From: a bacterium | GTDB lineage: Bacteria > UBA8248 | Length of the DNA: 64,000 nucleotides | Assembly (NCBI GenBank): GCA_963692865.2 | Contig: OY843592.1 | Location: 2,927,356-2,991,355 of the forward strand | Reading direction: 5' to 3' | Shown: piece by piece, positions 26,001-43,741 of the stretch | How the letters are laid out: each line of letters starts with the position of its first letter | How positions within the stretch are numbered: position 1 is the stretch's first letter | Position numbers and translations under genes: made by a program | Notes under the pieces: generated by a model | The model's database searches: none | What the model was told of the DNA's origin: nothing | Seen by the model: only the letters and a program-made list of their open reading frames with translations

Positions 26001-26600
26001 CTAGCAAGCCGCTTCCGGCGGCGGCAACATGGCTTCCACCTGTCCGACGATGGATTGCGGAAAACTCCGATCGGGGGAGACGCGCGCCAACACCCTGAGT
26101 CCGAGAAACAGACCGAACAAAGATTTCGCCGTTTGGTCCGGAACAACTCGGGGGCATATCTCCCCGCAAGCCTGCCCCCGCTTGATGGAAGCGTGAAAAA
26201 ACTCCGTCATGCCGGCGAACGCGCCGGCCACGAACGAAGCCACCTCTTCATCATGCGCCCCGAGCTCGAGGGCGACGTTGACTTCGAAGCAGCCCTCGCT
26301 CGACTCGTTGTCCACAGCCTTCGAGGCGACCGCTTTGAATACAGAGATCACCGCTCTGCGCGGCGAAGAATCCTTTTCGAGTTCCTGTATCGGAACTACG
26401 CGGTAAAACCGGTCGTAATGGTAAAGCGCCCGCAAGAACATCTGACGCTTGCCGCCGAACGCATGGTACAGGCTGCCTCGCAAGAGACCCGTCGCCTTCT
26501 CCAGATCCCGAATCGACGTCGCCGAATAGCCATAGCGCCAAAACTGATCCATTGTTTTCGTCAAAATTTCGTCCATATCGAACTTTGGCGCTTTCCCCAT
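26001..26600 (-). CDS. TetR/AcrR-family transcriptional regulator
   Basis: N-terminal HTH ILTKTMDQFWRYGYSATSIRDLEKATGLLRGSLYHAFGGK. 199 aa. Confidence 0.9.
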   Translation of the reverse strand: MGKAPKFDMDEILTKTMDQFWRYGYSATSIRDLEKATGLLRGSLYHAFGGKRQMFLRALYHYDRFYRVVPIQELEKDSSPRRAVISVFKAVASKAVDNESSEGCFEVNVALELGAHDEEVASFVAGAFAGMTEFFHASIKRGQACGEICPRVVPDQTAKSLFGLFLGLRVLARVSPDRSFPQSIVGQVEAMLPPPEAAC

Positions 26601-26915
26601 GGGTCCTCTCTTCGTTTTTCCCCGTTTTTACGCCGAATCACGGAATTCCTGCTAACGCCATGTCAAAGCTGTAGCGGCTCAAGCCAGCCCACCAATTTGA
26701 TGGTTAGCACACGGGCAAGCCCGTTTCAAGAAAAATCGTTCCCCGGCGGATTATTCCCCGGGAAGCGCTCGTGCGCCTGCGTTTAGAGTCTTTTTTGCCC
26801 GGTGGCGCGGGATAAATCCATTCATTTGCATTGCCTCGTGTTCGGCCCCGTGCTAGATTCTCGTTTCCGGGGAAGCCGACCTTTCTTTTCTGCCGAGACG
26901 CGGGAGGAACAACCC

Positions 26916-27308
26916 ATGGCGAAGCAACGAATCGACTCCGACAAGGTGAAGCCTGTCGCCGCGTATTCCACGGGCTGGAAGGTATCGAACGGACATCTCA
27001 TCATGCTGGCGGGCCAGGTGGCGGTCGCCGTGGACGGCAACACCATCGGCGGCGACGACATCCGGGCACAGACCCGGCAGGTGTACGAGAACATCAAGGC
27101 CGCGCTGGAGGCGGCGGGCGCCGGGATGGCGGACATCATCCGCCTCACGGTCTATATCACCGATCCTGCGAATGTCCCGGGATGTATGGAGGTGCGGCAG
27201 ACCTACTTCGGCGAACCCTACCCTGCGAGCACGCTCCTGATCGTGAGCGGCCTGGCGAAACCGGAGTGGCTCATCGAGATCGACGCGATCGCCTTCGTGG
27301 AAGACTAG
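26916..27308 (+). CDS. ridA: RidA/YjgF-family reactive-intermediate deaminase
   Basis: Start moved to the ATG at 26916 behind GGGAGGA. AAYSTGWKVSNGHLIMLAGQVAV...IRLTVYITD...PASTLLIVSGLAKPEWLIEIDAIA. Confidence 0.9.
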   Translation: MAKQRIDSDKVKPVAAYSTGWKVSNGHLIMLAGQVAVAVDGNTIGGDDIRAQTRQVYENIKAALEAAGAGMADIIRLTVYITDPANVPGCMEVRQTYFGEPYPASTLLIVSGLAKPEWLIEIDAIAFVED

Positions 27309-27312
27309 AAAC

Positions 27313-28167
27313 ATGAGCAGCCGCAGGGCCATCGCCGATACGCTCGTGCTCGTCAAGGGAGGCGGAGACCTCGCCACAGGCGTCGCGCACCGTCTGTACC
27401 GCGCGGGGTTTCCACTCGTTATCACCGAAATTGAAAACCCCACCATGGTGAGGCGCACCGTCTCCTTCGCCGAATGCCTCTACGCCGATGGATGGCAAGT
27501 AGAGGGCGTAACCTCCGCCCGGGCGGACGGCGAAACTCCCTCGGAAAAAGCAATGAGCGCGCGCGCCATCCTGGAGGCGGGTTCGATTCCGGTGATGGTG
27601 GACCCGCGCGCAGACGCAATCGCCCACGTCCGGCCCGCCGTCGTGGTCGATGCGATTCTGGCGAAGCGGAACCTCGGCACGCGCATCGATGACGCGGAGG
27701 TCGTGGTCGGCCTGGGGCCGGGCTTCACGGCGGGCGTGGATTGCCACGCCGTCATCGAGACCTCGCGGGGGCATGACCTGGGACGGGTGATTCTGGAGGG
27801 CGCGGCCAAACCGAACACGGGCGTTCCGGGGCCCATCGGCGGCTACACCACCGAGCGGCTCTTGCGCGCTCCCAAGGCCGGCGTCTTCACCTCCATCGCC
27901 CGAATCGGCGACACGGTGCGCGCGGGAGAAGCCGTCGCCCGCGTGGACGGCGAGGAGGTGCGCTCCGCCATCGACGGCGTTTTGCGCGGGCTTCTGAGAG
28001 ACGGCATCGAGGTGAGCGACGGCTTCAAGGTGGGCGACGTCGACCCGAGGGCCGAGCCCTCCCATTGCCACACGATATCGGATAAATCGCGCGCCATCGG
28101 CGGCGGCGCGCTCGAGGCCATCATGATGTTCCTGTTCGGCGTTTCAGCCATGGAGTATGCGAATTGA
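27313..28167 (+). CDS. yqeB: YqeB-family selenium-dependent molybdenum hydroxylase system protein
   Basis: LVLVKGGGDLATGVAHRLYRAGFPLVITEIENPTMVRRTVSFAECLY matches my recollection of the YqeB-family N-terminus. ~284 aa. True TGA stop at 28165-28167. Confidence 0.78.
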   Translation: MSSRRAIADTLVLVKGGGDLATGVAHRLYRAGFPLVITEIENPTMVRRTVSFAECLYADGWQVEGVTSARADGETPSEKAMSARAILEAGSIPVMVDPRADAIAHVRPAVVVDAILAKRNLGTRIDDAEVVVGLGPGFTAGVDCHAVIETSRGHDLGRVILEGAAKPNTGVPGPIGGYTTERLLRAPKAGVFTSIARIGDTVRAGEAVARVDGEEVRSAIDGVLRGLLRDGIEVSDGFKVGDVDPRAEPSHCHTISDKSRAIGGGALEAIMMFLFGVSAMEYAN

Positions 28168-29048
28168 GTACCGAGATATTGAGTGAAACGGTGGAAAACG
28201 GCGTCTACAACATCGGACGCAGCGAAATCCCCATCAACGAGACCAACGGCAACTCCTTCGTTCCCCCTGCGCAGTTCTATCTGGCGGCGGGCGACGCGCT
28301 CGAGCGCATCGCGTGGGCGGTGAGCCAAAACCTGCCCGTCCTCCTCGTGGGGGAGACCGGCGTCGGCAAGACCCTCTCGGTGCGCCACCTCGCCCACATG
28401 ACGAACAACGGCTTCCGGCGCGTGAACCTAAACGGCATGACCACGGTCGATGAGTTCGTGGGCAAGCTGATGATCAACGAACAGGGCACCTACTGGGTGA
28501 ACGGCATCCTGGTCGACGCCATGGAATCGGGCGACTGGCTGCTTATCGACGAGATCAACGCATGTCTGCCGGAAATCGCCTTCTGCCTGCACAGCCTGCT
28601 CGACGACGACCGCATGATCGTCTTGTCCGAATACGACGGCCGCATCGTCAAGCCCCACCCGAATTTCAGGCTCTTCGCCAGCATGAACCCGCACGAGGAC
28701 CGCAGATACGGCGGCACCAAGCCCCTGAACGAGGCGCTTCTGGATCGCTTCCCGGTCACCGTGAAGATGGACTACCTGCCTTTCGAGGCGGAAGTCGAGG
28801 TCATCATGCAGCAGAGCGGGAACCGCGACGAGGAGCTCGTCAAGCGCATGGTGCGCGTGGGCCACGACGTGCGCGAGGCCATGCAGAACGAGAAGGTGTT
28901 CTGCACGTTCAGCACCCGGCGCCTCATCGACTGGGCGCGCATGGCGGCGCAGTTCGACCCCATGGAAGCCGCCGTCTCGACGATTTTCAGCAAGGTCAAC
29001 TCTTTCGACGCCAAGGTGCTCGAGGACATCGTAGACAACCACTTCTAG
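28164..29048 (+). CDS. AAA+ ATPase, AAA_5/MoxR class (CoxD/CobS/NorQ-like)
   Basis: Walker A LLVGETGVGKT, Walker B WLLIDEINA, NPHEDRRYGGTKPLNEALLDRF sensor/arginine region. TTG start overlapping the yqeB stop. Confidence 0.88.
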   Translation: MSTEILSETVENGVYNIGRSEIPINETNGNSFVPPAQFYLAAGDALERIAWAVSQNLPVLLVGETGVGKTLSVRHLAHMTNNGFRRVNLNGMTTVDEFVGKLMINEQGTYWVNGILVDAMESGDWLLIDEINACLPEIAFCLHSLLDDDRMIVLSEYDGRIVKPHPNFRLFASMNPHEDRRYGGTKPLNEALLDRFPVTVKMDYLPFEAEVEVIMQQSGNRDEELVKRMVRVGHDVREAMQNEKVFCTFSTRRLIDWARMAAQFDPMEAAVSTIFSKVNSFDAKVLEDIVDNHF

Positions 29049-29062
29049 CCGGGAGATGAGGC

Positions 29063-30834
29063 ATGGAGCGCCGACGCGCCCGTCTCGAAGCGCTCGCGCA
29101 GGTGACCGCGCACGATTACGACCTCGCCCTGAACTTCGGCCCCAAGGCGAAGAACGGCGAGGACGCCATTCACGTCGAGGACCCCGAACAGACCCTGGCG
29201 CGCCTGGGCGGCGGACTCAACGACGAGCACGTCCTCAGATTCCAGAAAGGCATGACGCTCATCGAAGTGGCCCACAAAATCCACGGCACGTTCCGCTGGG
29301 CGGGGCGCGCCGCGCTCGCGAACCGCGAGAGGCCGGGTCTTTTCCACATCTGGCACACGCTCGAGGACGCGCGGTGCGAAAACCGCCTCGCCGAATCGCT
29401 GCCCGGCACCAGGAAGAATTTCCGCGCCTTCATTCTGCCTGCCATCGAGGCGGCCGAACGCAACCAGATGAGCGGGCAACTCCCCTTGTTTCTCCAGATC
29501 CAGTGGGGAATCTACCTCGCCGGGATCGGGCAGACGCCCGGCGTCCCCTCCTCGCGGCCCGGAGACTTGCCGGCGGCCTGGTTCGACACCGCCGTCGTCC
29601 AGATATTCCACAGGCTCACCCCGCTGGTAGACCGCGCCTGCGCCGCCGATGACCCCAAGACCGCCTTCGATTGCGCGAACGAGATCTACGACGCCATCCA
29701 GCGCTATCTCACCGAAGAGCAACTGGCCCGGATGAGCGAGGATCAGGACCTCTCGGATATCCCCGAGGAAATTTTAGAGAAAATCGAGAGCCAGAACCTC
29801 GAAGGCGACGACGACGAAGCGATGGAGATGCTTCACCCCGAAGCGGCGGAGGAAATCGACGAAGAGGACGTGGGCGAGCAGGTCGAACTGAGTCCCGAGG
29901 AACTCGCGGCGCTCGGGCACTGGGCCGCCCCCTGGTTCGAGTTAGAGGGCAACAAGAAGGAAATCCACCCCACCGCCGAGCATCCCGACGAGCGCACGGT
30001 CGTACTGCCGCCGGAGGGCAAGGCCGAGGAATACGCGGCGGTCATCGACAATGCGGGCAGCCAAATCAAGGTGCTGGTGTGGAAGCTCATGCAGATCATC
30101 CAGGAGAGAACCTACACCCGCTACAGCGGCTCGCACCGCTCGGGCAAGCTGAACCTCCCCAAGCTGTGGAAACAGCGGCTGGGGAAATTCCATCTCTTCC
30201 ACCGCAGGGAAGAGCCCGACAACTCGACGTGTGCTTCACGCTGCTCGTGGACGAGAGCGGCAGCATGAACCGCGAGTCGAAATACATGGCCGCCCGGGAG
30301 GCGACCATCTTCTTCGCCGAAGCGCTCGACCGCATCGACGTGCCCTTCGAGGTCATCGGCTATTCCACCGAGAGCTCGGAAGCCGCCATGGCGGCGGCCC
30401 TGGGCCACATCCCGGCGTTCAAGTTCCGCCACATCCGGCACTCGCCGCTGCAACACCGCATCTACAAGGGCTTTGAGGATCAGTTCGCCCAGGTGAAGCA
30501 CAGGCTCGTCAACATCTATCCGCGCTTCAACAACTGGGACGAGGAGCACCTGCTCTTCGCCTACCGCAGGCTCATCCAGCGGCCCGAGGAGGAGAAGATC
30601 ATCATCATCACCTCCGACGGCCAGCCCAACGGGGACGCGACCCACCTCGTGAACACGGTGAACCGGCTGCAGAAACTCGGCGTCCGCGTCATCGGCGTCG
30701 GCGTGGTGGACCCATTCGTGGAGCAGATCTACCCCAACCACATCGTCGTGCAGGACCTCTCCCAGCTTTCCACCGAACTCGTGAACATCCTGAGGCGCGA
30801 ACTGCTCGGCGGGTTGGAGAGCCGCGCTTGGTAG
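29063..30834 (+). pseudogene. CobT/CoxE-like protein with acidic linker and C-terminal VWA (MIDAS) domain, interrupted by a frameshift near 30205-30215
   Basis: The N-terminal 380 aa are in the frame of ORF 29063..30268. The VWA domain (LDVCFTLLVDESGSM...IIIITSDGQPNG) is in the frame of ORF 29671..30834 (frame offset -1). There is no start codon upstream of the MIDAS motif in the second frame. Confidence 0.7.
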
Positions 30835-31655
30835 CGCGAGAGAGCGTCGTCCGCTCCCTCGGGGTCGAACCGGGCCAGAGCGTCGCGGCTGTCGGCGGGG
30901 GCGGAAAAACGAGCCTGCTGACGGCCATCGCCAGGCAGTTTCACGCCCAAAACGGAATGCCTGCGATTCTCACGACGACTACGAAGATTTTCGCGCCCCT
31001 CCCCGAAGAAGGAATCCATCTCGCTTTGGGCGACGCCGAGACGCTCGCAGAGAACCTCCGCCCCTACATGGGCGCCTGCGGCATATCCTGGCTCGCCAGA
31101 AAGCGCGAGGGCGAAGCCCCAATTCCGGGCCGGGAGAGCGAGCGGCGCATGAAGCTGGGCGGTTTTACGCCTTCGGAAATTGCCCGCTTCACGCCGGGTG
31201 ACGCCCTGACGCTCATCGAGGCGGACGGCGCGAGAAGACTGCCCATCAAGGCGCCCGGCCCCGGTGAGCCCGTCCTGCCCGAAGGCCTGGACGCCGTGCT
31301 GGGCGTCATCGGGCTGGACGCGCTGGGCGCGCCCTTGAGCGAGGCGCACGTCTTCCGCCCCGATGCGCTCTCACGCATATGCGATCTGGGAGCCGGAGAA
31401 GAGATTACGGCGGAGACGGTCGGGAAGTTGTGCGCGCATCCTGATGGTCTTTTTCATAAAGCGGAGGCCGGCGCCCGCAAGTGGATCGTCATCAACAAGG
31501 CGGATCTGGAAACCTCGCTGGAAAAATTGCGCGAAATCGCATATATTGTATGGGAGTTTGCCGGAAAACCTCATGGCCCGGCGGACGGCATCCTCTTTAC
31601 GTCTTGTACGAACAACGAATGTGAAGTATTCATACGTATCACACAAGATGCGTAA
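30828..31655 (+). CDS. yqeC: YqeC-family selenium cofactor biosynthesis / hydroxylase accessory protein
   Basis: P-loop-like AAVGGGGKTSLLTAIA and ILTTTTKIF motifs typical of YqeC. 275 aa. TTG start behind GGAGA, overlapping the VWA stop. Confidence 0.78.
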   Translation: MVARESVVRSLGVEPGQSVAAVGGGGKTSLLTAIARQFHAQNGMPAILTTTTKIFAPLPEEGIHLALGDAETLAENLRPYMGACGISWLARKREGEAPIPGRESERRMKLGGFTPSEIARFTPGDALTLIEADGARRLPIKAPGPGEPVLPEGLDAVLGVIGLDALGAPLSEAHVFRPDALSRICDLGAGEEITAETVGKLCAHPDGLFHKAEAGARKWIVINKADLETSLEKLREIAYIVWEFAGKPHGPADGILFTSCTNNECEVFIRITQDA

Positions 31656-31686
31656 CGACTGCAATTCCAAGCAGGCGGAGCAAGGA

Positions 31687-32832
31687 ATGAGCAAGGACGT
31701 ATTCAGGGAAATGGCGAAACTCAAGGAAGACGGCCAGGGCGGCGCGCTCGCCACCGTCGTGGCCCGCAAGGGGTCCGCGCCCATGAGCGGCGATGCGAAG
31801 ATGCTCGTGCGCGAGGACGGCAGCACGGAGGGCACGGTCGGCGGCGGCTGTCTCGAAGCCGAAGTCTGGGAAACCGCCATGAGCGTCCTGGAGACGGGCG
31901 CACCCGAAAAGCTGCGCTTCGACCTCACCCAGCAGGAAGCCGAAGACAGCGGGCACATCTGCGGCGGCGTGGTGGAGATACTCGTGGAGCCGTTCCAGGC
32001 GTTCCAGGAAGAGTTGCTCGGCGAGATCAACCGCATCAGAACCGAGGGCGGCAGCGCCGCGCTGGCGACCATCGTTCAGCCGGGCGATATCGACGCGCCG
32101 AATGCGGAGAACAGGAAGATGCTCTTCCGGCGCGACGGCAGCGCCGTGGGCGATATTCCCACCTACTCGACGGAGATATGGGCGGAGAGCACCCAGATCA
32201 TCCGAAACGGCAGCCCCACGCTCCTGCAGTTCAACAGGGACGCCGCGCGCGCCGGAGAAAAGCGCTCGACGCTCACCGAGGCCACCGAAATTTTCGTCGA
32301 ACCCATATCCGGCCAGCCCCTCGTCTATATTTTCGGCGGCGGTCACGTCTCCTTCTGCGTCGCGCAGGCGGCCTACCTCGCGGGATTCCGCGTTTCGGTC
32401 GTCGAGGACAGACCCTCGTTCGCCAACAAGGAGCGCTTCCCGATGGCGGAATCGTTCCACGTGGGGGAATTCCCTGAAATTTTCGAGAAAATCCCGGTCG
32501 ATGAGTCCGACTACCTGGCCATCATCACCCGAGGCCACGCGAACGACGAGGTCGTCCTCGAGTGGGCGATGAAGTCCGACGCGCGCTACATCGGGATGAT
32601 TGGCTCCAAAAGCAAGGTGCTGCTCACCTATCGCCACCTCCAGGACAAGGGGTATGACCGCGGCGAACTCATCGAGCGCGTCCATGCGCCCATAGGCCTC
32701 GACATCGGCGCCGATACGCCGGGCGAGATCGGGGTGGCCATCGTCGCCGAACTCATCCGGCACCGCCGCAAAGGCGAGGCGCAGGGCGAAGGCGCGGGCA
32801 GCAAGAGGGTGCAACTCAGAAGAAAATCCTAA
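31687..32832 (+). CDS. xdhC: XdhC/CoxI(CoxF)-family molybdenum-hydroxylase accessory protein
   Basis: Start at the ATG at 31687 (GGAG 6 nt upstream). GALATVVARKGSAPMSGDAKMLVREDGSTEGTVGGGCLEAEV (XdhC_CoxI N-domain, duplicated) and the Rossmann-like IFGGGHVSFCVAQAAYLAGFRVSVVEDRP. Confidence 0.88.
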   Translation: MSKDVFREMAKLKEDGQGGALATVVARKGSAPMSGDAKMLVREDGSTEGTVGGGCLEAEVWETAMSVLETGAPEKLRFDLTQQEAEDSGHICGGVVEILVEPFQAFQEELLGEINRIRTEGGSAALATIVQPGDIDAPNAENRKMLFRRDGSAVGDIPTYSTEIWAESTQIIRNGSPTLLQFNRDAARAGEKRSTLTEATEIFVEPISGQPLVYIFGGGHVSFCVAQAAYLAGFRVSVVEDRPSFANKERFPMAESFHVGEFPEIFEKIPVDESDYLAIITRGHANDEVVLEWAMKSDARYIGMIGSKSKVLLTYRHLQDKGYDRGELIERVHAPIGLDIGADTPGEIGVAIVAELIRHRRKGEAQGEGAGSKRVQLRRKS

Positions 32833-32912: not shown

Positions 32913-33668
32913 ATGGGTTATCTCCGCAGGCTCATCGGCGCAGCGACGGATTTCCTCATTCCCCCGAAATGCCTCTTGTGTTCGGCTTCCATGAATATCG
33001 GCGAACCGCATGCGATATGCGCGCCATGCACGGAAGCCTTCGAGCGCTTCGAACCGCCCTGGTGCCCGAGATGCGGCAATCCCTTCCATTCCATGACCGC
33101 CCTCGCCCACTCCCCGGCGCACGTCTGCGCGGATTGCCTCGAAAGCGGACATCACTACGACATGGCCCGCGCCATCGGCGCGTATGAGGGCCTGCTGAGG
33201 GACTCGGTCCACCTCTTCAAGTTCCAGGGTTTCACGAAGCTCGCCCGCGAGTTCGCGCCCCTCCTCGCCGGGCTTGCGGCGGAGGAGTTCGGTATCGAAG
33301 ATGACGCGCAGAACGTGGTCGTGACGCACGTGCCCATCGCCCCCGCCCGCTGGCGGACGAGAGGCTTCGATCAGGCGAAGCTGCTCGCCCTCATGACGGC
33401 GGAATGCCTGGAGCGGCCCCACGCGGATTTTATCGAGCGCGCGAAGGAGACCCGCTCGCAGACGGGCCTCACCGCGCGGGAGCGGCGCCGGAACATGCGC
33501 GGCGTCTTCGGTGTTCGGAACAAGGGAGTGCGCGAAAAACTCGAAGCGGCCACGTGCATCCTCGTTGACGACGTCGTCACGACCGGCTCGACCGCCTCGG
33601 CCTGCGCCCGCGAACTCAAAAAAGCAGGCGCCGAAGCGGTGCACCTGCTCACGATATGCAGGTCTTGA
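32913..33668 (+). CDS. comF: ComF-family phosphoribosyltransferase-like protein
   Basis: N-terminal Zn-ribbon cysteines (PPKCLLC...CAPC...CPRCG...CADC) and PRTase motif ILVDDVVTTGSTA. Confidence 0.88.
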   Translation: MGYLRRLIGAATDFLIPPKCLLCSASMNIGEPHAICAPCTEAFERFEPPWCPRCGNPFHSMTALAHSPAHVCADCLESGHHYDMARAIGAYEGLLRDSVHLFKFQGFTKLAREFAPLLAGLAAEEFGIEDDAQNVVVTHVPIAPARWRTRGFDQAKLLALMTAECLERPHADFIERAKETRSQTGLTARERRRNMRGVFGVRNKGVREKLEAATCILVDDVVTTGSTASACARELKKAGAEAVHLLTICRS

Positions 33669-33793
33669 AGGCGAGAGTTTTCGTAGCGCGACCTGTCCCT
33701 ACGGATTAAATCTTCAAAAAACCACGAACAAAATAACGAAACCAAGCAAATATGACGGAAGGCATAACAACGATTTGAATGACAACAAAATAG

Positions 33794-33839
33794 TTGACAA
33801 CATATTTGATGTATGATTAAATTCAACAGATATGTTGAA
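33794..33839 (+). promoter_or_regulatory. candidate promoter plus palindromic operator of the low-GC island
   Basis: TTGACA (33794-33799), 17 nt, TTAAAT (33817-33822). Perfect palindrome TTCAACA-gata-TGTTGAA at 33822-33839. Lies in an AT-rich ~200-bp leader. Pattern match only. Confidence 0.35.
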
Positions 33840-33868
33840 TCACAAAGAAATTTACGAAAGGAATTCGT

Positions 33869-35101
33869 ATGAAATCATCCACTGGCCGCTGGGTGAGCGG
33901 CGACGACTTTTTTGATCGTGAACCCGAATTACAGATACTGGAAGCACAAGTCCAAGACCGCAATCACGTATTGTTGACCGGACAGCGGCGCATGGGAAAA
34001 ACCAGCATTGCCCGAGAACTCGGGAGGTGGCTAGAAGCCAAAGACTGGGTTTTCCTCTTCGCAGACGTAGAGGGGGCAGCTTGTCCGGAGGACGTTATCG
34101 CCCAAATCGCCCAAGCTGCGCATCCGGTTCGCGCGCTCTCCTCGCGTTTCACCGCCTGGTCTGAGCGCTTCTTTAGCGACAACATCGAGGAAATCAACGC
34201 GCTCGATTTTGGCGTGAAGTTCCGCGCCGGGCTGGATGCAGGCAGCTGGCGACGTCACGGAGAGCGACTGTTTCGAGATTGCGCCGAGTATGACAAGCCT
34301 GTTTTGCTCGTCATCGACGAATTGCCGATCTTCCTGAAACGGATGCTCCACAATGACGGCGATGCACGGCGGGTCGACGAGTTCATGAGTTGGCTGCGCG
34401 GCGTGCTTCAGGCGCTGGGAGAAGATTCTCCAGTCCTCATGTTATCAGGAAGCATCGGGCTGGAGCCTCTTATGCGCAGACTCGGCCTGCCCGACCGCAT
34501 CAACCATCTGTACCCCTTTCGCCTGGGTCCGTGGAGCCGCGACACCTCCATCGAGTGTTTCGAACATCTCTCGGAGAGTTACGAAATATCCGTCGAGGCC
34601 GGGGTGGCGGATGCAGTATACGAAACCTTGGGAGTCGGCATACCTCACCATGTGCAGTCTTTCTTTGCGCGTTTGCGGGATTTCGCCACGATGCAGGAGC
34701 GGGAGCGGATAACGGTTGAAGACGTCGGCGAAGTCTATCGCAACGCGCTTCTGGGGGCTTCGGGACAAAATGATCTCGTACACTACGAAACACGCCTGAA
34801 AGAAGGCATCGAGGATGAAAACTACTCCATCGCCATGGAGATTCTGGCCGAGGCGGCGACTCTGGAGGTATTCACGCCCGCTGCCAGAAAGTGTCTCGAA
34901 CGCTTGTATTCCACGGTGGTAGACGATGCGCCCAGTCGCATTGCGGACATTATCGAAGTCCTCGCGTACGACGGGTATCTGGAATCCGGCGATGGCGGCT
35001 ACCGTTTCCCGTCGCGCTTGCTCAAGGATTGGTGGTCGGCGCGCTTCCGCGATCATCACACGCCCCTCGAAAAACGCCGACCCGAGGACAAATCACAATA
35101 G
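33869..35101 (+). CDS. AAA+/P-loop ATPase (archaeal-ATPase / ATPase_2-like) with C-terminal winged-helix-like tail
   Basis: Walker A LTGQRRMGKTSIA and Walker B PVLLVIDELP. 410 aa. Lower G+C and A/T-ending codons relative to the flanks. Confidence 0.8.
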   Translation: MKSSTGRWVSGDDFFDREPELQILEAQVQDRNHVLLTGQRRMGKTSIARELGRWLEAKDWVFLFADVEGAACPEDVIAQIAQAAHPVRALSSRFTAWSERFFSDNIEEINALDFGVKFRAGLDAGSWRRHGERLFRDCAEYDKPVLLVIDELPIFLKRMLHNDGDARRVDEFMSWLRGVLQALGEDSPVLMLSGSIGLEPLMRRLGLPDRINHLYPFRLGPWSRDTSIECFEHLSESYEISVEAGVADAVYETLGVGIPHHVQSFFARLRDFATMQERERITVEDVGEVYRNALLGASGQNDLVHYETRLKEGIEDENYSIAMEILAEAATLEVFTPAARKCLERLYSTVVDDAPSRIADIIEVLAYDGYLESGDGGYRFPSRLLKDWWSARFRDHHTPLEKRRPEDKSQ

Positions 35102-35109
35102 AGGACCCA

Positions 35110-37692
35110 ATGAACGAAACGTCCAACAGGCAAATCCGCAAGTTCAACCCGGGCGCATACCAGTCGGATGAGGAGTTGATGGAGCAATTCGTCGTCCGAA
35201 ACCGCGAACTGGAAATCGTACTCGAAGTGCTCCGCGCGAACATCGACTCCCCATCGTGTCAGCACGTTCTGGCCGTCGCCCCGCGCGGTCGAGGGAAAAC
35301 CATGCTTCTGGCCCGCGCCGCAGCGGAAATCCGCGCAAACGACGAACTCGCCCGACGCCTGTTGCCCGTCCGTTTCATGGAAGAGAGCCAAGAGATTTTC
35401 CATATGGCCGACTTCTGGCTGGAGGCGCTGTTTCACCTGGCCAGAGAGAGCGCCCCTCACGATCCCGAACTCGCGCAAGAACTGCGAGCTACGCACGCCG
35501 ACCTGGCCGCTCACTGGGGAGATCGGTCGCTTGAAGACCGCGCCCGCGCCGCCGTTCTGCAGGCGGCGGATCGACTGGACAGAAAACTCGTGCTGATGGT
35601 CGAGAACCTGCAAGCTCTGTGCGACAGCGTGGATGCGGATTTCGGCTGGAAGCTGCGCGGGGCGTTGCAGTCCGAACCCAAGATAATGCTGCTCGCCTCC
35701 GCCACCAGCCGCTTCGAGAGTCTGGACGATGCGCAGCAACCCTTCTTCGAGTTGTTTCGTATCATCTGCCTGGAGCCGCTGACCACCGAAGAGTGCCGTC
35801 TCCTGTGGCAGGCGGTGAGTGGGGACGAAGTGAGCGGGCGCGAGATCAGGCCGCTTCAGATACTGACCGGAGGCAGCCCCCGCCTCCTCGTCATCGTCGC
35901 CGGATTCGCGCGCCATCACTCCCTTCGCCAGTTGATGGAAGAGTTGGTGACGCTGATAGACGAGCACACCGAGTATTTCCGAAGCCATCTGGAAGTCCTG
36001 GCCAAAACTGAACGCCGCGTCTATCTCGCGGTAATCGACCTTTGGCGGCCGTCGAGCACCTCCGAAATCGCGGCGCGCGCGCGCATGGACGTTCGGACCG
36101 TATCGACCATGCTCGGGCGGCTTGTCGAGCGGGGTGCGGTGATCGTGGAAGGAAAAGGCAGGAAGCGCCATTACGCCGCCGCCGAACGTCTCTACAGCAT
36201 TTACTACAAGCTGCGGCGCGAAAGAGACGAAGCGGCCGTCGTGGAGAATCTGATCCGTTTCATGGTGGTTTTCTACAACGAAGAAGAACGGGCGGAGATG
36301 TTCCCCCGGCTGATTCGGGAGGCGACGGAATCAGCCGCCATTCGGGAGGGTCTCGACAGGGCGGCCGCCGGACTCCCGGAATTCGAGAGCCTGTATACCG
36401 GCATCATGCAGAGAAGCCGGTGGGAGCATCTAGTGGAGGAGATTGCAACGGCGTTCAAAGGGAGGGACTTCCAGAAAGTCATCGAGACCATAGGCCGCGC
36501 GTTTGCCGTCGATGGCGCAAACCGGTCTCAAGCGTCGGAGTCCATCATTGCCTGGCTATTGCTTCGGAAGGCGTATTCACATCAAGAACTAGGCGATTTC
36601 GAAGCGGCGATAACAACCTATGAAGAGATAGCCGAACGCTTTGCCGACAGCGACGAACCTGAAATCCAACAGCGCGTCGCTACGGCGTTGGTAGACAAGG
36701 GAGATGTGCTGGAAGAACTCGGCGACTTCAAGGCGGCGATTGCAACATACAGTGAGTTAGTCAATCGTTTTGGTGGCAGCAACACACTGGATATCCAATG
36801 GTGGGTCGCTACAGCTTTGGTTTGCAATGGAAATGCACTGGAAGAACTCGGGGATTTCGAAGCGGCGATTATCACCTACGAGGAAGTTGTCAAGCGTTTT
36901 TCAAACAGCAACGTACCTGAAATCCAGTGGTGGGTCGCTGCAGCGTTAATCAATCAGGGGGATGTACAAAGCGAACTTGGCAATTGCGAAGTAGCAATAG
37001 CGACTTACAATGAAGTAGTAAAGCGCTTTGGTAACATCAACTCGCCGGAGATTCAGGAGCGGGTCGCCGTTGCGTTGGTCTTCAAGGGAATTGTGCGAGA
37101 AAAACTCGGCGATTTCGAAAGGGCGATTGCGGCCTATAAAGAAGTGGTCGAACGTTTTATCGACAACAGTGCGCCGGAATTGCAATTGTGGATAGCGAGG
37201 GCATTAGCCGATATGAGTATTGCACAAACTCAAATCGGTCGCGCAGATGAAGCACTGCACACTTGCGAGGAACTCGAACGAAGACTCGGAACATTCCTGA
37301 CCGGCGAAGAAGAAACCGAGTTTCGGTGGCGAGTGATGTACACGCGAGTCTTGGCTCTACTAGGAAAGGGAGAACACCGAGCCGCCATGGACGCGTTTCG
37401 CTCCGCGTATGTCGAGTTCCTTCCTCGCAACGAAATCCCGATTCACGAAATGCTGCGATTAGTGCCTAACTTGATCGCAGCGGGCGCATCGACCCATAAG
37501 CTCGTCGAAATCCTCACGAGCGATGAGACGAAATCCGGCGCGTTGGCACCCCTGATCGTCGCCCTGCGTCAACATGCTGGCGAGGCTGTTCGTGCGCCGG
37601 CGGAAGTGCTCGAAGTGGCTGCGGATATCCTTGAACGTATCGAGGAACAATCAGAGAAAGGTGTTTCCGGGGCTTCCCGACAACCTGAATAA
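35110..37692 (+). CDS. STAND-like NTPase - wHTH - TPR-like repeat protein (860 aa)
   Basis: ATG at 35110, 8 nt after the upstream stop. Walker A VAPRGRGKTML and Walker B LVLMVENLQ. MarR/TrmB-like wHTH (VYLAVIDLWRPSSTSEIAARARMDVRTVSTMLGRLVERGAVIVEGKGRKRHY). C-terminal helical repeats. Confidence 0.8.
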   Translation: MNETSNRQIRKFNPGAYQSDEELMEQFVVRNRELEIVLEVLRANIDSPSCQHVLAVAPRGRGKTMLLARAAAEIRANDELARRLLPVRFMEESQEIFHMADFWLEALFHLARESAPHDPELAQELRATHADLAAHWGDRSLEDRARAAVLQAADRLDRKLVLMVENLQALCDSVDADFGWKLRGALQSEPKIMLLASATSRFESLDDAQQPFFELFRIICLEPLTTEECRLLWQAVSGDEVSGREIRPLQILTGGSPRLLVIVAGFARHHSLRQLMEELVTLIDEHTEYFRSHLEVLAKTERRVYLAVIDLWRPSSTSEIAARARMDVRTVSTMLGRLVERGAVIVEGKGRKRHYAAAERLYSIYYKLRRERDEAAVVENLIRFMVVFYNEEERAEMFPRLIREATESAAIREGLDRAAAGLPEFESLYTGIMQRSRWEHLVEEIATAFKGRDFQKVIETIGRAFAVDGANRSQASESIIAWLLLRKAYSHQELGDFEAAITTYEEIAERFADSDEPEIQQRVATALVDKGDVLEELGDFKAAIATYSELVNRFGGSNTLDIQWWVATALVCNGNALEELGDFEAAIITYEEVVKRFSNSNVPEIQWWVAAALINQGDVQSELGNCEVAIATYNEVVKRFGNINSPEIQERVAVALVFKGIVREKLGDFERAIAAYKEVVERFIDNSAPELQLWIARALADMSIAQTQIGRADEALHTCEELERRLGTFLTGEEETEFRWRVMYTRVLALLGKGEHRAAMDAFRSAYVEFLPRNEIPIHEMLRLVPNLIAAGASTHKLVEILTSDETKSGALAPLIVALRQHAGEAVRAPAEVLEVAADILERIEEQSEKGVSGASRQPE
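36586..37230 (+). repeat. five tandem 129-bp (43-aa) coding repeats inside the STAND gene
   Basis: ELGDFEAAITTYEEIAERFADSDEPEIQQRVATALVDKGDVLE and four similar units (ELGDFKAAIATYSELVNRF..., ELGDFEAAIITYEEVVKRF..., ELGNCEVAIATYNEVVKRF..., KLGDFERAIAAYKEVVERF...). Confidence 0.8.
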
Positions 37693-37723
37693 AGCCGCGT
37701 GGATATTCCCAACAACCTTCCCC

Positions 37724-38797
37724 TCACCCATTCCCAACCATCCGCGCCGCGAGGATGAGCGCATCCGCCATGCTGGCGGGGTCGGCGAGGCCGCGCCCGG
37801 CGATGGGATAGCCCGTCCCGTGCTCGACCGAGGTCCTGACGATAGGCAGGCCCAGCGTGACGTTGACGCCGCGCACGCTCGCCTGCCCCCGGGAGTCGAA
37901 GCGAAAGCACATCAGCTTGCCCGGAATGTGGCCCTGATCGTGATACATGGCCACGACGCCGCTGTAGTAGCCGCCGCGCAGTTTGCCGAAAATCGTGTCC
38001 GGCGGCTCCGGGCCGTGCGCGTCGACGCCCATCTTCCTTAAATCCGCAACCGCAGGCGCGATTTCCTCCATCTCCTCTTTTCCGAACAGACCCGCCTCGC
38101 CCGCGTGGGGATTGAGCCCCGCAACGCCGATTCTGGGCGTTTTGCGGTCGAGCAGGCGCAGGGCGTCGTCCAGAACGCGCGCCACGTAGACGATTCTCTT
38201 TTGCTTGACGCGCCGGAGCGCGACTCGCAAGGGGCAGTGGGTGGACAGGTGCGCGATGCGAATCCCCCGGTGCGCCAACATCATCACGGGCTGGCCGCCG
38301 TTGCACAGATCGGCGAGCATTTCGGTATGGCCGGGGTAGTCGTAGCCTCCGGCTTGCAGGGATTCCTTGTTGATCGGCGCAGTCGCTATGGCGTCCACAA
38401 AGCCCGCGCGCGCCATCGAGACGGCCCTTTCGATGTACCGGCCCGCCGCCGCACCCAGTTCGGGGAGAACTTTTCCGTACACGCGGTGCTCGGGAGCGAC
38501 GTTTTTGAGATCGATCACGGGCGTGGCGGCCGAGCCTTCGTATTGCGCCAGTTTCGCCTCATCGGTTACCCGCTCCAGACGCGCGGGAATCTTCATCCGC
38601 CGGGCGTGTTTCCTGAGCACGGCCATATCGCCCACGATGAGGGGCGCGCATTTTTTCAGCACGCTCGGCTCCAGAGCGGCCTTGAGGCACACCTCGGGTC
38701 CCACCCCCGCCGGGTCTCCCATGGTCATGGCGATTACGGGTCTTCGCTTCAACGCGGCTTCCTTTTCTGCTCGGCGCGTCATGCGCAGAAAACGCAC
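37724..38797 (-). CDS. pdxA: 4-hydroxythreonine-4-phosphate dehydrogenase
   Basis: IAMTMGDPAGVGPEV..., GHTEMLA and YHDQGHIP motifs. Exact start among the N-terminal Mets is uncertain. Confidence 0.92.
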   Translation of the reverse strand: MRFLRMTRRAEKEAALKRRPVIAMTMGDPAGVGPEVCLKAALEPSVLKKCAPLIVGDMAVLRKHARRMKIPARLERVTDEAKLAQYEGSAATPVIDLKNVAPEHRVYGKVLPELGAAAGRYIERAVSMARAGFVDAIATAPINKESLQAGGYDYPGHTEMLADLCNGGQPVMMLAHRGIRIAHLSTHCPLRVALRRVKQKRIVYVARVLDDALRLLDRKTPRIGVAGLNPHAGEAGLFGKEEMEEIAPAVADLRKMGVDAHGPEPPDTIFGKLRGGYYSGVVAMYHDQGHIPGKLMCFRFDSRGQASVRGVNVTLGLPIVRTSVEHGTGYPIAGRGLADPASMADALILAARMVGNG

Positions 38798-41818: not shown

Positions 41819-42793
41819 CTACGGAACCAGAACGACCTTGCCCAGGAACTGACCTTCCAGAACATAATCATGCGCCTCGTTCGCTTCCTCGAAACTCGAC
41901 GCCTTGTCGACGTTGATCTTAAACGCCCCCTCTTGCAGCAGGGGCGTGAAACGGCGCACCAGCTCCGGCATTTTCGGAAACAGATTCACCACGGCCAGCC
42001 CCAGCACCACGGCGTCTTTCGTCATGACTGCAGGCACCCGGAATTCCGCGCCCGGCCCTTTCCCCGTGCCCGTGCCGATGACGATGATTCTCCCATCCAC
42101 CCGGATGGCGTCCAGGTCCTTGTCGAAATTATCGCAGGCGCAAAGCTCGACGACGACGTCGACGCCGCGTCCGCTGGTGAGCTCCATGCAACGCTCGGCG
42201 AAATCCTCCTCGCGGTAGTTAATCGTCTCGTCCGCGCCCATGTCCTGGCAGAACTTCGCCTTCGCATCGGAACTCACCGTCGCGAAAACGCGGCACCCCA
42301 GACGCTTGGCGAGCTGAATCGCCGCCATGCCGACGCCTCCCGCGCCGCCTTGCACCAGCACCGTCTCGCCGGGGCCCGCGTTGGCCTTGATGACGAGCGC
42401 GTTCCAGGCCGTGTAGAACGCCACCGTGATGCACGCCCCCTCTTCATAAGAGTAGGCCTCGGGCAACTCGGCCGTAGCGTCGGCCGCGAGCCGCACGTTC
42501 TCGGCGTAGCTTCCGCCGATGGCGCGGCCGTATACGCGCTCCCCGATCCGCCGGCCCGCCACACCATCGCCCAAGGCGATGATCTCTCCCGCCGCCTCGG
42601 CTCCGGGAACATAAGGCGGCGTAACCAGTTTGGCGTAAGGGTGCTTGGCGGCCCGAATGGCAAGGTCCACCGGGTTCACACCGACTGCCCCGGCCTTAAT
42701 CAGCACTTCGCCGGGCGCAGGCTTCGCGTCTTCCACCTCATCCACCCGCATGGGAACGTCCATGTTGAATTGATGCACGCGCACGGCTTTCAT
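41819..42793 (-). CDS. NADPH:quinone oxidoreductase (tandem paralogue)
   Basis: Same length (324 aa) and collinear with the downstream paralogue. VLVQGGAGGVGMAAIQLAKRLGCRVFATV. Confidence 0.9.
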   Translation of the reverse strand: MKAVRVHQFNMDVPMRVDEVEDAKPAPGEVLIKAGAVGVNPVDLAIRAAKHPYAKLVTPPYVPGAEAAGEIIALGDGVAGRRIGERVYGRAIGGSYAENVRLAADATAELPEAYSYEEGACITVAFYTAWNALVIKANAGPGETVLVQGGAGGVGMAAIQLAKRLGCRVFATVSSDAKAKFCQDMGADETINYREEDFAERCMELTSGRGVDVVVELCACDNFDKDLDAIRVDGRIIVIGTGTGKGPGAEFRVPAVMTKDAVVLGLAVVNLFPKMPELVRRFTPLLQEGAFKINVDKASSFEEANEAHDYVLEGQFLGKVVLVP

Positions 42794-42889
42794 CAGAATT
42801 CACTCTCCTCGGTTTTGAGAATCAGTCCGAAAGTTATCGAACGATAGAAAGAATCCACCTCATAACTCATAAAAACATACGAAGAATCA

Positions 42890-43741
42890 CTAATACTCAT
42901 CCGTCCAGCTTCTGCGGCGTCTTTCGCCTGCGTCACATGGCGGGGCCGCTCTCGACACCAGAACGGCGCTTTCCGGAGGGTCCGGCGGATCAACCGCTCG
43001 TTTCTTTTCTTTTTCCGGCAAGTTGACAATCTCCAGAATCAGTTTCCTGCGGATGGCGCGTCCGAAAGACTTGAAATCATTCGCTACCACCAGGAAAGCG
43101 CGCCTGCCTCCGATGACGCATTTCCTGTAATACAGATCCAGGTTCGGCATCGGCATCCTTCCCCAGGGGCTCGGACGGTTGTTCATGATGGGAAGCCCGT
43201 TAATCGTCACGCCGGCGCGCAAGGCCTTGTCCCGCGCATGAATCACGAAATCTCCGCTGTTGTTCGGACCGTCGCCGGAAATGTCGATTACGCGGCGCTC
43301 ACTCTTGTAACCGTTGTTCTCGAACAAGGGAAGTGCGAACTCTATCGCGCCGCTGATTGAGGTGTAGGGACCCACCCCCACCGGTTTTCGAGAGAGCTCG
43401 GAAGCGAACTCCTCGGCGCTCGCTTTGTCATGAATCTGCCTCCAGCCCACGACGACTCTCTGGAAATCGAAGCCCGCCCATTCCATATAACTGACCGCAA
43501 TGCTTTTGCGCCTCCCGGATTGAATGGCGCGCAAAACCGAGGGGGAGCGAAAGGCGTCCACGTACCCCATCCGCTGGAGCTTGCCTTCTTCCTCGTCCAC
43601 GCTCCCGGAAACATCGACGGCCAGGACGAGTTCCAAATCCACACCGACCGGAGCAGGCCACGCGAGACTCGAACCCAGCAGAATCGCGAAACCAGCCATG
43701 AGCACCGCCCGACCGCCTCCCACCCTCAGGTAGCGCATCAT
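42890..43741 (-). CDS. DUF1194 (VWA-like) secreted protein
   Basis: Signal peptide, then DLELVLAVDVSGSVDEEEGKLQRMGY...GWRQI...SISGAI...IDISGDGPNN, matching my recollection of DUF1194. Confidence 0.78.
   Translation of the reverse strand: MMRYLRVGGGRAVLMAGFAILLGSSLAWPAPVGVDLELVLAVDVSGSVDEEEGKLQRMGYVDAFRSPSVLRAIQSGRRKSIAVSYMEWAGFDFQRVVVGWRQIHDKASAEEFASELSRKPVGVGPYTSISGAIEFALPLFENNGYKSERRVIDISGDGPNNSGDFVIHARDKALRAGVTINGLPIMNNRPSPWGRMPMPNLDLYYRKCVIGGRRAFLVVANDFKSFGRAIRRKLILEIVNLPEKEKKRAVDPPDPPESAVLVSRAAPPCDAGERRRRSWTDEY

Follow-up and report, generated by a model that had tools for sequence, protein, structure and literature searches.

The 64-kb stretch of bacterial DNA analysed here (lineage UBA8248; contig OY843592.1 of assembly GCA_963692865.2; hereafter the window) contains, between comF and pdxA, a segment (33669-37723) that encodes two adjacent and mutually different P-loop NTPases, here called gene 1 and gene 2. 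We read this locus as a self-contained and self-regulated cassette of two STAND (signal transduction ATPases that have numerous domains) NTPases, a switch triggered by an intracellular ligand and most likely the sensor and partner of a conflict system directed against phages or mobile elements, and we put the probability of this reading at about one half. The conflict role is favoured because of the combination of a STAND core with tetratricopeptide repeats (TPR), the turnover of this sensor, the mobility of the pair, the copies found in defence islands and on an integrative and conjugative element (ICE), and the self-repressed design of the operon.

Innate immune receptors of animals, plants and bacteria are built around STAND NTPases, and so are regulators such as MalT. 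To our knowledge, nearly every bacterial example studied so far consists of one protein in which an effector or DNA-binding domain can be recognised. The present pair stands apart, as two different STAND-type NTPases are obligatorily coupled in it, no known output domain accompanies them, and the operon possesses its own, co-evolving operator.

Two different NTPases in one operon

Searching with gene 1 recovered 62 loci (numbered with the prefix L below), and in every one of them the next gene downstream is a homologue of gene 2. Most relatives have an overlap of 4 nt between the genes; in the window they lie 8 nt apart, as the first-pass annotation of this DNA, made from the sequence alone, had noted (gene 1 ends at 35101 and the ATG of gene 2 is at 35110); the GAGGA ribosome-binding site of gene 2 overlaps the stop codon of gene 1. 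The coding part comprises the following features.

33869..35101, + strand: gene 1, 410 aa, sensor-less STAND-like NTPase of the Arch_ATPase/SSO1545 type (Pfam, profile, structure model)
33980-34006, + strand: gene 1 Walker A, GQRRMGKTS, aa 38-46
34301-34327, + strand: gene 1 canonical Walker B, VLLVIDELP (D150-E151), aa 145-153
aa 257-259 of gene 1, + strand: GxP motif
34868-35011, + strand: gene 1 acidic C-terminal winged helix, aa 334-381, net charge -3, pI 4.5
35012-35059, + strand: gene 1 invariant basic/aromatic C-terminal helix, LLKDWWSARFRDHH
35110..37692, + strand: gene 2, 860 aa, STAND NTPase with TPR sensor (Pfam, model, Foldseek)
35278-35304, + strand: gene 2 Walker A, APRGRGKTM, aa 57-65
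35587-35610, + strand: gene 2 non-canonical Walker B, LVLMVENL (VEN), aa 160-167
aa 226-294 of gene 2, + strand: helical domain with TGGSPRLL (AlphaFold model)
35998..36183, + strand: gene 2 winged-helix domain of the nucleotide-oligomerisation domain (NOD), aa 297-358 (Pfam, model); candidate operator-binding domain
36184..36537, + strand: gene 2 helical arm (HD2-like) leading from the NOD to the sensor, aa 359-476 (model and PH0952 domain order)
36538..37419, + strand: gene 2 TPR sensor, aa 477-770; at 49-52% G+C the lowest of the coding part
37420..37677, + strand: gene 2 conserved C-terminal helical domain, ~85 aa (model, homologue alignment)

The P-loop and Walker B strings that had been listed for both proteins are all present, and in gene 1 both motifs are invariant across 64 homologues. 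Pfam assigns AAA_16 and AAA_22 to gene 1 over threshold and ATPase_2 under it; against PF01637 (Arch_ATPase) the protein scores 20.8 bits and does not reach the gathering threshold of 33.2, which some gene 1 orthologues and the homologue from Clostridium estertheticum pass or nearly pass. In a Foldseek comparison with the PDB, the structure model (predicted local distance difference test, pLDDT, 84) finds PAB2304 (2qen) and SSO1545 (2fna) on ranks 1 and 2 at TM-scores of 0.60-0.73, followed by Orc1/Cdc6 (2v1u, 1w5t; TM 0.4-0.5) and RuvB, and a profile of the gene 1 family retrieves 2qen by sequence as well (E = 1.4e-4). The earlier description of gene 1 as 'archaeal-ATPase-like' agrees with its best matches in fold and sequence, the archaeal 2qen and 2fna. 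No sensor, effector or toxin-like domain was found in gene 1 by Pfam search; of the two proteins it is the shorter and the better conserved.

Gene 2 is a STAND protein, with a P-loop nucleotide-binding domain (NBD) that is followed by a helical domain (HD) and then by a winged-helix domain (WHD), which together constitute the NOD, and with an arm and a repeat sensor behind them. Its mechanical open reading frame opens at an upstream GTG (34891); the start is taken to be ATG 35110, because homologues begin at the ATG and not at that GTG. According to the AlphaFold model (pLDDT 80) the domains follow each other in the order NBD, HD, WHD, arm, TPR and a C-terminal domain of ~85 aa, with the winged helix at aa 299-357 and no further domain ahead of the NBD. 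Pfam recognises AAA_16 at aa 26-170, weakly TrmB/MarR/Penicillinase_R/DUF7342 at 297-378 and strongly TPR at 446-767, and the best PDB match is PH0952 (6mfv; Foldseek E = 6e-8). The NTPase plus helical-repeat architecture proposed in the first-pass annotation is accordingly laid out in full in gene 2, gene 1 being STAND-like. That the two might be recent paralogues was considered and rejected, as only their P-loops align (BLASTP E = 0.65; hhalign probability 35%).

The Walker A and Walker B motifs of gene 2, including E165 and N166, are invariant in 40 homologues. Its Walker B reads E-N, where D-E would be usual and STAND proteins typically have D-D, and such a motif may allow nucleotide binding with poor hydrolysis. 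The MarR/TrmB-like winged helix that had been pointed out in this protein exists; however, because it stands directly after the helical domain, as in PH0952, it represents the WHD of the NOD core rather than an added output domain. It carries a net charge of +7 and has a pI of 11.2 inside a protein of pI 5.1; the invariant arginines (R323, R325, R329, R337 and R341) include residues of the recognition helix, and the wing residues K352 and R353 are nearly invariant (at least 90%). The sensor contains five tandem units of 129 nt (43 aa) at 36584-37228 that are mutually 63-71% identical, in agreement with the 43-aa TPR-like repeats seen at first pass. The C-terminal ~85 aa have no sequence match in Pfam or the PDB, and their identification as a LuxR-like helix-turn-helix (HTH) or another known domain was rejected on this ground; the domain is retained even where homologues have lost nearly all of their TPRs.

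No nuclease, TIR, protease, integrase or transposase was detected in the pair of the window with Pfam, NCBIfam or PADLOC v2; nothing exceeded any NCBIfam cut-off, and for the window proteins and four plasmid homologues PADLOC v2 gave only insignificant P-loop and winged HTH matches (mad8, PDC-S01, Csa3/CARF). Neither a transmembrane segment (maximum Kyte-Doolittle value 1.4) nor a signal peptide was found, and there are no terminal inverted or direct repeats around 33400-37950 and no tRNA nearby. Likewise, a literature search returned no named system that describes this pair, and an exact-sequence look-up of the window protein no record. The absence of a recognisable effector or mobility gene, as reported before, is in this way confirmed by Pfam, PADLOC and the repeat search, and the statement that the pairing of two P-loop ATPases is not a named system holds against both PADLOC v2 and the literature.

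Promoter and palindromic operators

The ~200-bp AT-rich leader described at first pass measures 200 nt and has 35% G+C. No Rfam match was found in it at E <= 0.1. It includes a promoter and three palindromic sites of the CAACA-N4-TGTTG type.

33669..33868, + strand: AT-rich leader, 35% G+C, from the comF stop to the gene 1 start, with promoter and operators inside
33783..33796, no strand: operator O1, CAACAAAATAGTTG, CAACA-N4-TGTTG type with 1 mismatch, abutting the -35
33794..33823, + strand: sigma-70-type promoter, TTGACA (33794-33799), 18-nt spacer, TAAATT (33818-33823); 10/12 consensus positions
33798..33811, no strand: operator O2, CAACATATTTGATG, 1 mismatch, overlapping the -35 and the spacer
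33824..33837, no strand: operator O3, CAACAGATATGTTG, perfect palindrome, immediately 3' of the -10

O2 and O3 together form an inverted repeat (I13), and the TTGACA within GTTGACAAC is conserved across phyla. The arrangement itself likewise recurs from phylum to phylum: within the ~110 nt 5' of gene 1, CAACA-N4-TGTTG palindromes flank and overlap the TTGACA -35, with one more after the -10. In the window only three matches to this pattern exist, all of them at 33783-33837. Summed over 61 loci, the 200-nt stretches upstream of gene 1 contain 118 matches (9.7/kb), compared with 32 in 1.25 Mb elsewhere in these loci (0.026/kb, the chance rate), which corresponds to an enrichment of ~375-fold; part of these 32 lies upstream of solo paralogues of gene 2. 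At least one site precedes gene 1 in 46 of the 61 loci and at least two do so in 37.

The homologues on four plasmids (see below) each possess different palindromes around their own TTGAC -35, and therefore the DNA binder should be encoded by the module and co-evolve with its site. Judged from these sites, autoregulation by a module-encoded DNA binder is predicted for the family as a whole. As operator binder, the best candidate is gene 2's basic winged helix; with its net charge of +7 and many invariant Arg/Lys residues it contrasts with the winged helix of gene 1 at net -3. In a Vicinamibacterales clade, a variant operator coincides with an altered recognition helix of gene 2 (VSALIARL vs VSTMLGRL), a match that is weak evidence because it concerns a single clade. 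An upstream Xre/HTH_3 gene was rejected as a general operator binder, as it is present in 4 loci only. The idea of a DNA-binding output, put forward with the winged helix in mind, survives to the extent that the promoter operator is conserved and the winged helix strongly basic; the part in which the winged helix was a separate output domain does not.

One locus (L015) contains an orphan promoter/operator unit, TTTCAACAAATTCGTTGACAACGGATCTGTTGAA, at 2486-2518, 7.5 kb upstream of the pair and followed only by a tiny open reading frame; it is possibly the remnant of a lost copy of the module.

A conserved operator also suits the main alternative explanation, namely that the locus encodes a signal-integrating STAND transcription regulator of the MalT, LAL or PH0952 kind, in which gene 2 would sense a metabolite or protein by means of its TPR array, bind DNA and control its own operon together with a distant regulon, while gene 1 would serve as co-regulator or anti-activator. 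We regard this as possible, if doubtful. Beside the operator and the basic winged helix, it can draw on the lack of an effector domain and on PH0952, the closest solved fold, which is a predicted transcription factor (PMC6468293). However, outside the pair's own promoter and those of its paralogues the operator occurs at the chance level of ~0.03/kb in 1.25 Mb of flanking DNA, with no occurrence elsewhere in the 64 kb; sites lying over the -35 and the transcription start display the geometry of repression and not that of MalT-like activation; and no LuxR- or ArsR-type domain dedicated to DNA binding is present.

Spread, inheritance and sensor turnover

Relatives of gene 1 number more than 1,500 in a collection clustered at 90%, the top 120 showing identities of 70% or more and lengths of 373-472 aa (405-424 in nearly every case), and a search against 1.84 billion representatives at 50% identity gave 247 matches at E <= 1e-30 and 1,065 at E <= 1e-10. 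The pair occurs in at least 10 phyla at 63-88% identity, its carriers including Nitrospinota, Latescibacterota, Acidobacteriota (Vicinamibacterales, Bryobacterales), Gamma- and Alphaproteobacteria, Spirochaetia, Thermodesulfobacteriota, Nitrospirales, Anaerolineales and Gemmatimonadota. Gene 1 sequences group mostly by host lineage, the flanking genes differ from lineage to lineage, and identity between lineages never falls under ~70-75%, some cross-phylum pairs reaching 79-82%.

Four distant plasmid homologues were examined, three further plasmid matches spanning most of gene 1 being left out. They reside on plasmids of Segatella copri, Clostridium estertheticum, C. tagluense and Moraxella osloensis, and at 20-26% identity to gene 1 they keep the overlapping layout: the first protein, of 384-408 aa, is Arch_ATPase-like, and the second, of P-loop/NACHT-like type, has its MarR-like winged helix at ~290-360 and a tail that varies (absent, helical or TPR). 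The family is consequently old enough to keep its layout at 20% identity and mobile enough to show 70-88% across at least ten phyla. With these homologues and the 62 loci, the pair is conserved and its genes co-occur well outside this genome, a point which the first-pass annotation had proposed to check.

Several copies are found in mobile or defence-related surroundings. One is cargo of an ICE beside TraH/TraG/TrwB/TrwC; the L002 copy lies among toxin-antitoxin genes, and the L064 copy next to a resolvase and DNA methyltransferases; the Segatella plasmid copy is adjacent to a WYL regulator and DUF262. On the Moraxella osloensis plasmid pNP7-2 (L069, NZ_CP024445.1 69940-83112) the homologue of the pair is located inside a dense defence island, with a QatC-like synthase, QatD, a PD-T4-6-like Ser/Thr kinase, transposases, a dUTPase, a retron type III-A-like phosphoribosyltransferase (PRTase) and a further ATPase. 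Apart from these, a QueC-family gene stands just downstream of the pair in L001. Defence genes accompany the Moraxella and Segatella plasmid copies, the ICE copy and the L064 copy and, in a comparison made without a background control, not most of the 61 loci. Because the 136 deduplicated neighbours are mostly metabolic, the defence-island context is the exception, and the suggestion that homologues occur in defence islands elsewhere is right for some copies and not for most. A third conserved gene does not exist among these neighbours, as no Pfam family is found in more than 2 of the 136; the best neighbour cluster (11 of 61 loci) reflects synteny within one order.

The predominance of metabolic genes in the neighbourhood would suit the STAND regulator considered above. 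Yet no conserved neighbouring target operon is present in the 61 loci, contrary to what the first-pass annotation had named as evidence for a core regulator, and for such a regulator it would be atypical to have itself as the sole visible target while residing on ICEs and plasmids and in ten phyla. A phage origin was rejected: the search of IMG/VR viral contigs with two peptide patterns from gene 1 came back empty, and GenBank phages yielded one partial weak match only.

At least two carriers are metagenome-assembled genomes (MAGs) of sponge symbionts, APA_bin_93 and SB0661_bin_36, whose naming as sponge-symbiont bins is confirmed in PMC11706023, and in some loci the neighbours encode ankyrin, leucine-rich repeat, fibronectin-III and cadherin proteins. 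Both facts are compatible with a symbiosis factor, that is, with a TPR protein of the 'eukaryotic-like' repeat type that sponge symbionts would direct at host proteins. We hold this to be very improbable, since the proteins have neither a transmembrane segment nor a signal peptide, the NOD to which the TPR array is joined is cytoplasmic, and plasmids of bacteria from gut, meat, faeces and skin (Segatella, Clostridium, Moraxella) carry homologues of like arrangement.

Gene 2 also occurs alone, as solo paralogues in seven loci, whereas gene 1 was never seen without gene 2 in the loci examined. The paralogues (L002 14554-16995, L003 14663-17119, L013 ~14694, L014 ~14073, L017 ~15331, L043 ~13804 and L060 ~13143) are of full length, 52-56% identical, and situated a few kb downstream of the pair without a gene 1 of their own; each has its own pair of CAACA-N4-TGTTG sites ~100-200 nt upstream. 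Remnants of gene 1 beside an intact gene 2 were observed near locus position 10001 in L056 (aa 312-408), L060 (1-44) and L062 (381-409), and roughly a dozen further loci have gene 1 broken up into frames, which may be due to decay or to indel errors of long-read MAG assemblies. L013 and L056 are contigs of one Latescibacterota MAG (jk18x34bins.57), which possesses two or more module copies, gene 1 being decayed in one.

The occurrence of orphan gene 2 and never of orphan gene 1 would be expected of a selfish addiction cassette, similar to toxin-antitoxin systems, in which gene 1 would be harmful when unchecked and gene 2 would repress the operon and neutralise gene 1, stabilising the cassette on mobile elements. 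An autoregulated two-gene operon with palindromic operators and closely spaced genes (overlapping in most relatives) fits this explanation, as do the copies among toxin-antitoxin genes (L002), on plasmids and on an ICE. It is nevertheless improbable in our view: both proteins are far larger than typical toxin-antitoxin components, the elaborate variable sensor of gene 2 would be unneeded, gene 1 has no toxin-like domain, and the putative toxin is encoded first and the regulator second.

In the lineage of the window, the pair is found between comF and pdxA in seven related genomes. Its identities among the syntenic relatives are 80-91%, compared with 79-94% for the flanking genes, and the synonymous divergence (dS) from the nearest genome (L004) is 0.58 for gene 1 and 0.37 for the NOD of gene 2, compared with 0.32-0.45 for five flanking genes. 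A recent horizontal acquisition in this genome is ruled out by this synteny and by synonymous divergence equal to that of the flanks. Taking together the cross-phylum identity, the grouping by lineage, the differing flanks and the ICE and plasmid contexts, the family history is one of repeated horizontal transfer followed by vertical descent. The horizontally acquired module of the first-pass annotation can thus be kept for the family, which moved between phyla, ICEs and plasmids, and not as a recent event in this lineage.

It follows from the vertical co-inheritance of the pair with its flanks that the low G+C content is a persistent property rather than the scar of a fresh transfer. The segment has 56.2% G+C, compared with 63.1% in the rest of the window, which is 4.7 standard deviations (SD) under the mean and below all 1,037 other stretches of 4,055 bp. 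The mid-50s value first estimated by eye was accordingly right, and the prospect of a composition indistinguishable from the flanks, raised at the same time, is contradicted by this statistic; the flanks themselves have 62-63%, instead of the 'high-60s' then supposed. G+C at third codon positions (GC3) is 0.65-0.66 in the two genes and 0.76-0.85 in the flanking genes. The preference for A/T-ending codons holds in relative terms, such codons making up 34.6% in the pair vs 20.2% in nine flanking genes (chi-square P = 1e-21), and not in absolute ones, as 65% of the pair's codons end in G/C. The dip is uneven. G+C falls furthest in the TPR repeats (49-52%), at the 5' end of gene 1 and in the leader; the NOD region of gene 2, at 61.7%, is near the host value. 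Across all loci, G+C of the pair tracks that of the host (r = 0.84) but is pulled to ~57-60%; in 47 of 61 loci the flanks are richer in G+C. Among the window segment and the syntenic L004-L007, L042 and L059, the pair stays at ~54-57% G+C with low GC3 in hosts of 58-64%, despite a dS of ~0.4, and amelioration of its composition seems not to be proceeding.

Elsewhere in the window, two further and much shorter G+C dips occur at 26250-27000 and 42750-43250 (54-55% and 53%). Upstream of comF, a cluster of a MoxR/CbbQ-type AAA ATPase, CobT/VWA, YqeC and XdhC genes (27313-32832; L063 3434-8954) is syntenic in all related genomes; it looks like housekeeping and lies outside the module.

Ratios of nonsynonymous to synonymous divergence (dN/dS), computed on 14 close pairs, have medians of ~0.19 in gene 1, ~0.18 in the NOD of gene 2, ~0.34 in the TPR region and ~0.4 in the C-terminal domain. 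All parts range within 0.1-0.7, with the exception of one saturated comparison of the C-terminal domain (1.1 at a dS of 1.7), and this purifying selection throughout argues that every part is functional. In several of the 14 pairs the dS of the TPR region is 3-9 times that of the NOD, and ~2-2.5 times in a further few. Positive selection on the sensor was rejected, because dN/dS does not exceed 1 there and the raised synonymous divergence of the TPR points to rearrangement of the repeats. Orthologues of gene 2 vary between 508 and 1741 aa through repeat number (740-899 aa among syntenic relatives), and identity to the closest relatives amounts to 85-90% in the NOD vs 50-69% in the TPR region. 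Given this range of lengths, the low identity and the high dS of the TPR region, the sensor therefore changes by gain, loss and replacement of repeats. The longest copy is a gammaproteobacterial gene 2 of 1,741 aa (L029 11261-16441) with at least 26 of the 43-aa repeats; downstream of it, in convergent orientation, stands a diverged gene 2-like gene of 41% identity (L029 19677-17506, minus strand).

Possible mechanism and comparison with known systems

The conflict system that we favour could work as follows. At rest, the basic winged helix of gene 2 would sit on the operators over the -35 and the transcription start and keep the operon low. The variable TPR array would bind a trigger. With its E-N Walker B, gene 2 would be a slow-hydrolysing nucleotide switch, which upon triggering would open and multimerise as STAND proteins do, and would then recruit or nucleate gene 1 with its canonical, hydrolytic Walker B. 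Gene 1 would deliver the output, for which ATP consumption, engagement of DNA or membrane through its C-terminal helix, or derepression alone are candidates.

Several observations weigh against this reading. The winged helices of STAND proteins normally clamp the nucleotide and do not bind DNA, and operator binding by the WHD of gene 2 is a candidate activity, for which the correspondence of recognition helix and operator in a single clade is a weak argument; the complex of gene 1 with gene 2 is likewise a proposal. No recognisable effector domain was found, no PADLOC v2 model matched, those of Avs included, and no relative was detected in the viral contigs of IMG/VR with two peptide patterns from gene 1. 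The immediate neighbours are for the most part ordinary metabolic genes, dN/dS is nowhere above 1 save in the one saturated comparison, and in the lineage of the window the pair is vertically inherited and stable among housekeeping genes. A regulator would behave likewise, and this stability counts in favour of that alternative. From the conflict or sensor NTPase module envisaged at first pass, the conserved two-NTPase STAND module remains, and the recent acquisition, the winged HTH as an added output domain and a general defence context have been given up.

Among proteins of solved structure, PH0952 of Pyrococcus horikoshii, a STAND ATPase with TPR sensor (6mfv), has the order NBD, HD, WHD, arm, TPR (PMC6468293) and resembles gene 2 in fold and domain order. 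By contrast, gene 2 adds the C-terminal domain of ~85 aa, its sequence similarity to PH0952 is below phmmer detection, and no Arch_ATPase partner gene is described for PH0952 in PMC6468293. With MalT and the LAL activators the module shares a NOD with helical-repeat sensor and an ATP switch under ligand control that is linked to promoter DNA sites. Unlike them, gene 2 has no C-terminal LuxR-type HTH according to Pfam, the operators are placed over the -35 and the transcription start and not upstream of them, an adjacent regulated operon is missing, and a second NTPase is obligatorily linked. If the locus nevertheless encoded a regulator, it would represent a new class, with DNA binding performed by the winged helix of the NOD itself.

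Avs/AVAST and other defence STAND NTPases (PMC13581612) are similar in having a STAND core and a large variable TPR-like sensor and in their horizontal spread, and some copies of the pair likewise occur in defence islands, on an ICE and on plasmids; a recent survey distinguished 589 STAND clades, 198 of them defence-associated (Lee et al. 2026, PMC13581612). The pair differs in lacking a nuclease, protease, SIR2 or TIR effector, whether fused or adjacent, in matching no Avs model at E <= 0.1 in PADLOC v2 (the newer Avs7-21 being outside this search), and in being a two-NTPase operon with its own operator and an inconsistent defence context.

The archaeal proteins PAB2304 (2qen) and SSO1545 (2fna) resemble gene 1 in their NBD, their helical domain with a G-I-P motif and their C-terminal winged helix. 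They are functionally uncharacterised, whereas gene 1 is below the Pfam threshold, has an extra C-terminal helix and is always coupled to a TPR-STAND protein. Archaeal Orc1/Cdc6 is comparable with the gene 1 locus in that an AAA+-like core with winged helix is found beside AT-rich inverted repeats; it differs in that the winged helix of gene 1 is acidic, the TM-score is 0.4-0.5, the repeats frame a promoter, and the locus lies inside bacterial chromosomes, ICEs and plasmids having their own replication systems. A ParAB-like partition system or an Orc1-type origin was rejected for related reasons: the Walker A lacks the deviant form of ParA, gene 1 has an acidic winged helix, and the repeats are placed around the promoter.

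In sensor-helper NLR pairs, such as NAIP-NLRC4 of animals and the paired NLRs of plants, two STAND proteins work together, one a variable sensor and the other conserved. The resemblance is an analogy, and the helper there carries a CARD, coiled-coil (CC) or TIR signalling domain that gene 1 does not have. We would nevertheless mention, as a speculation that we think unlikely, that the module might be a bacterial counterpart of such pairs, in which an operator-bound TPR-STAND sensor, once triggered, would leave the DNA and nucleate a polymerising executor of the Arch_ATPase type, the whole being an effector-less immune module exchanged among the phyla of sponge microbiomes. If this were true, it would provide a first function for the Arch_ATPase (PF01637) family and the first STAND NOD winged helix that binds DNA sequence-specifically. 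More generally, if the cassette is an immune module, it would show how signalling can do without a classical effector, and it would offer a model in bacteria for receptors that work as sensor-helper pairs.

Taken together, the system fails the tested defining features of Avs, of MalT/LAL and of Orc1/Cdc6, while its parts are of known kinds, belonging to the STAND superfamily and the Arch_ATPase fold. New are the strict linkage of the two genes, their spread across phyla and on plasmids, the conserved operator and the non-recent presence in this lineage. Whether immune module or regulator, the pair is a small portable cassette with a defined cis site and as such a testable context for the large uncharacterised Arch_ATPase family.

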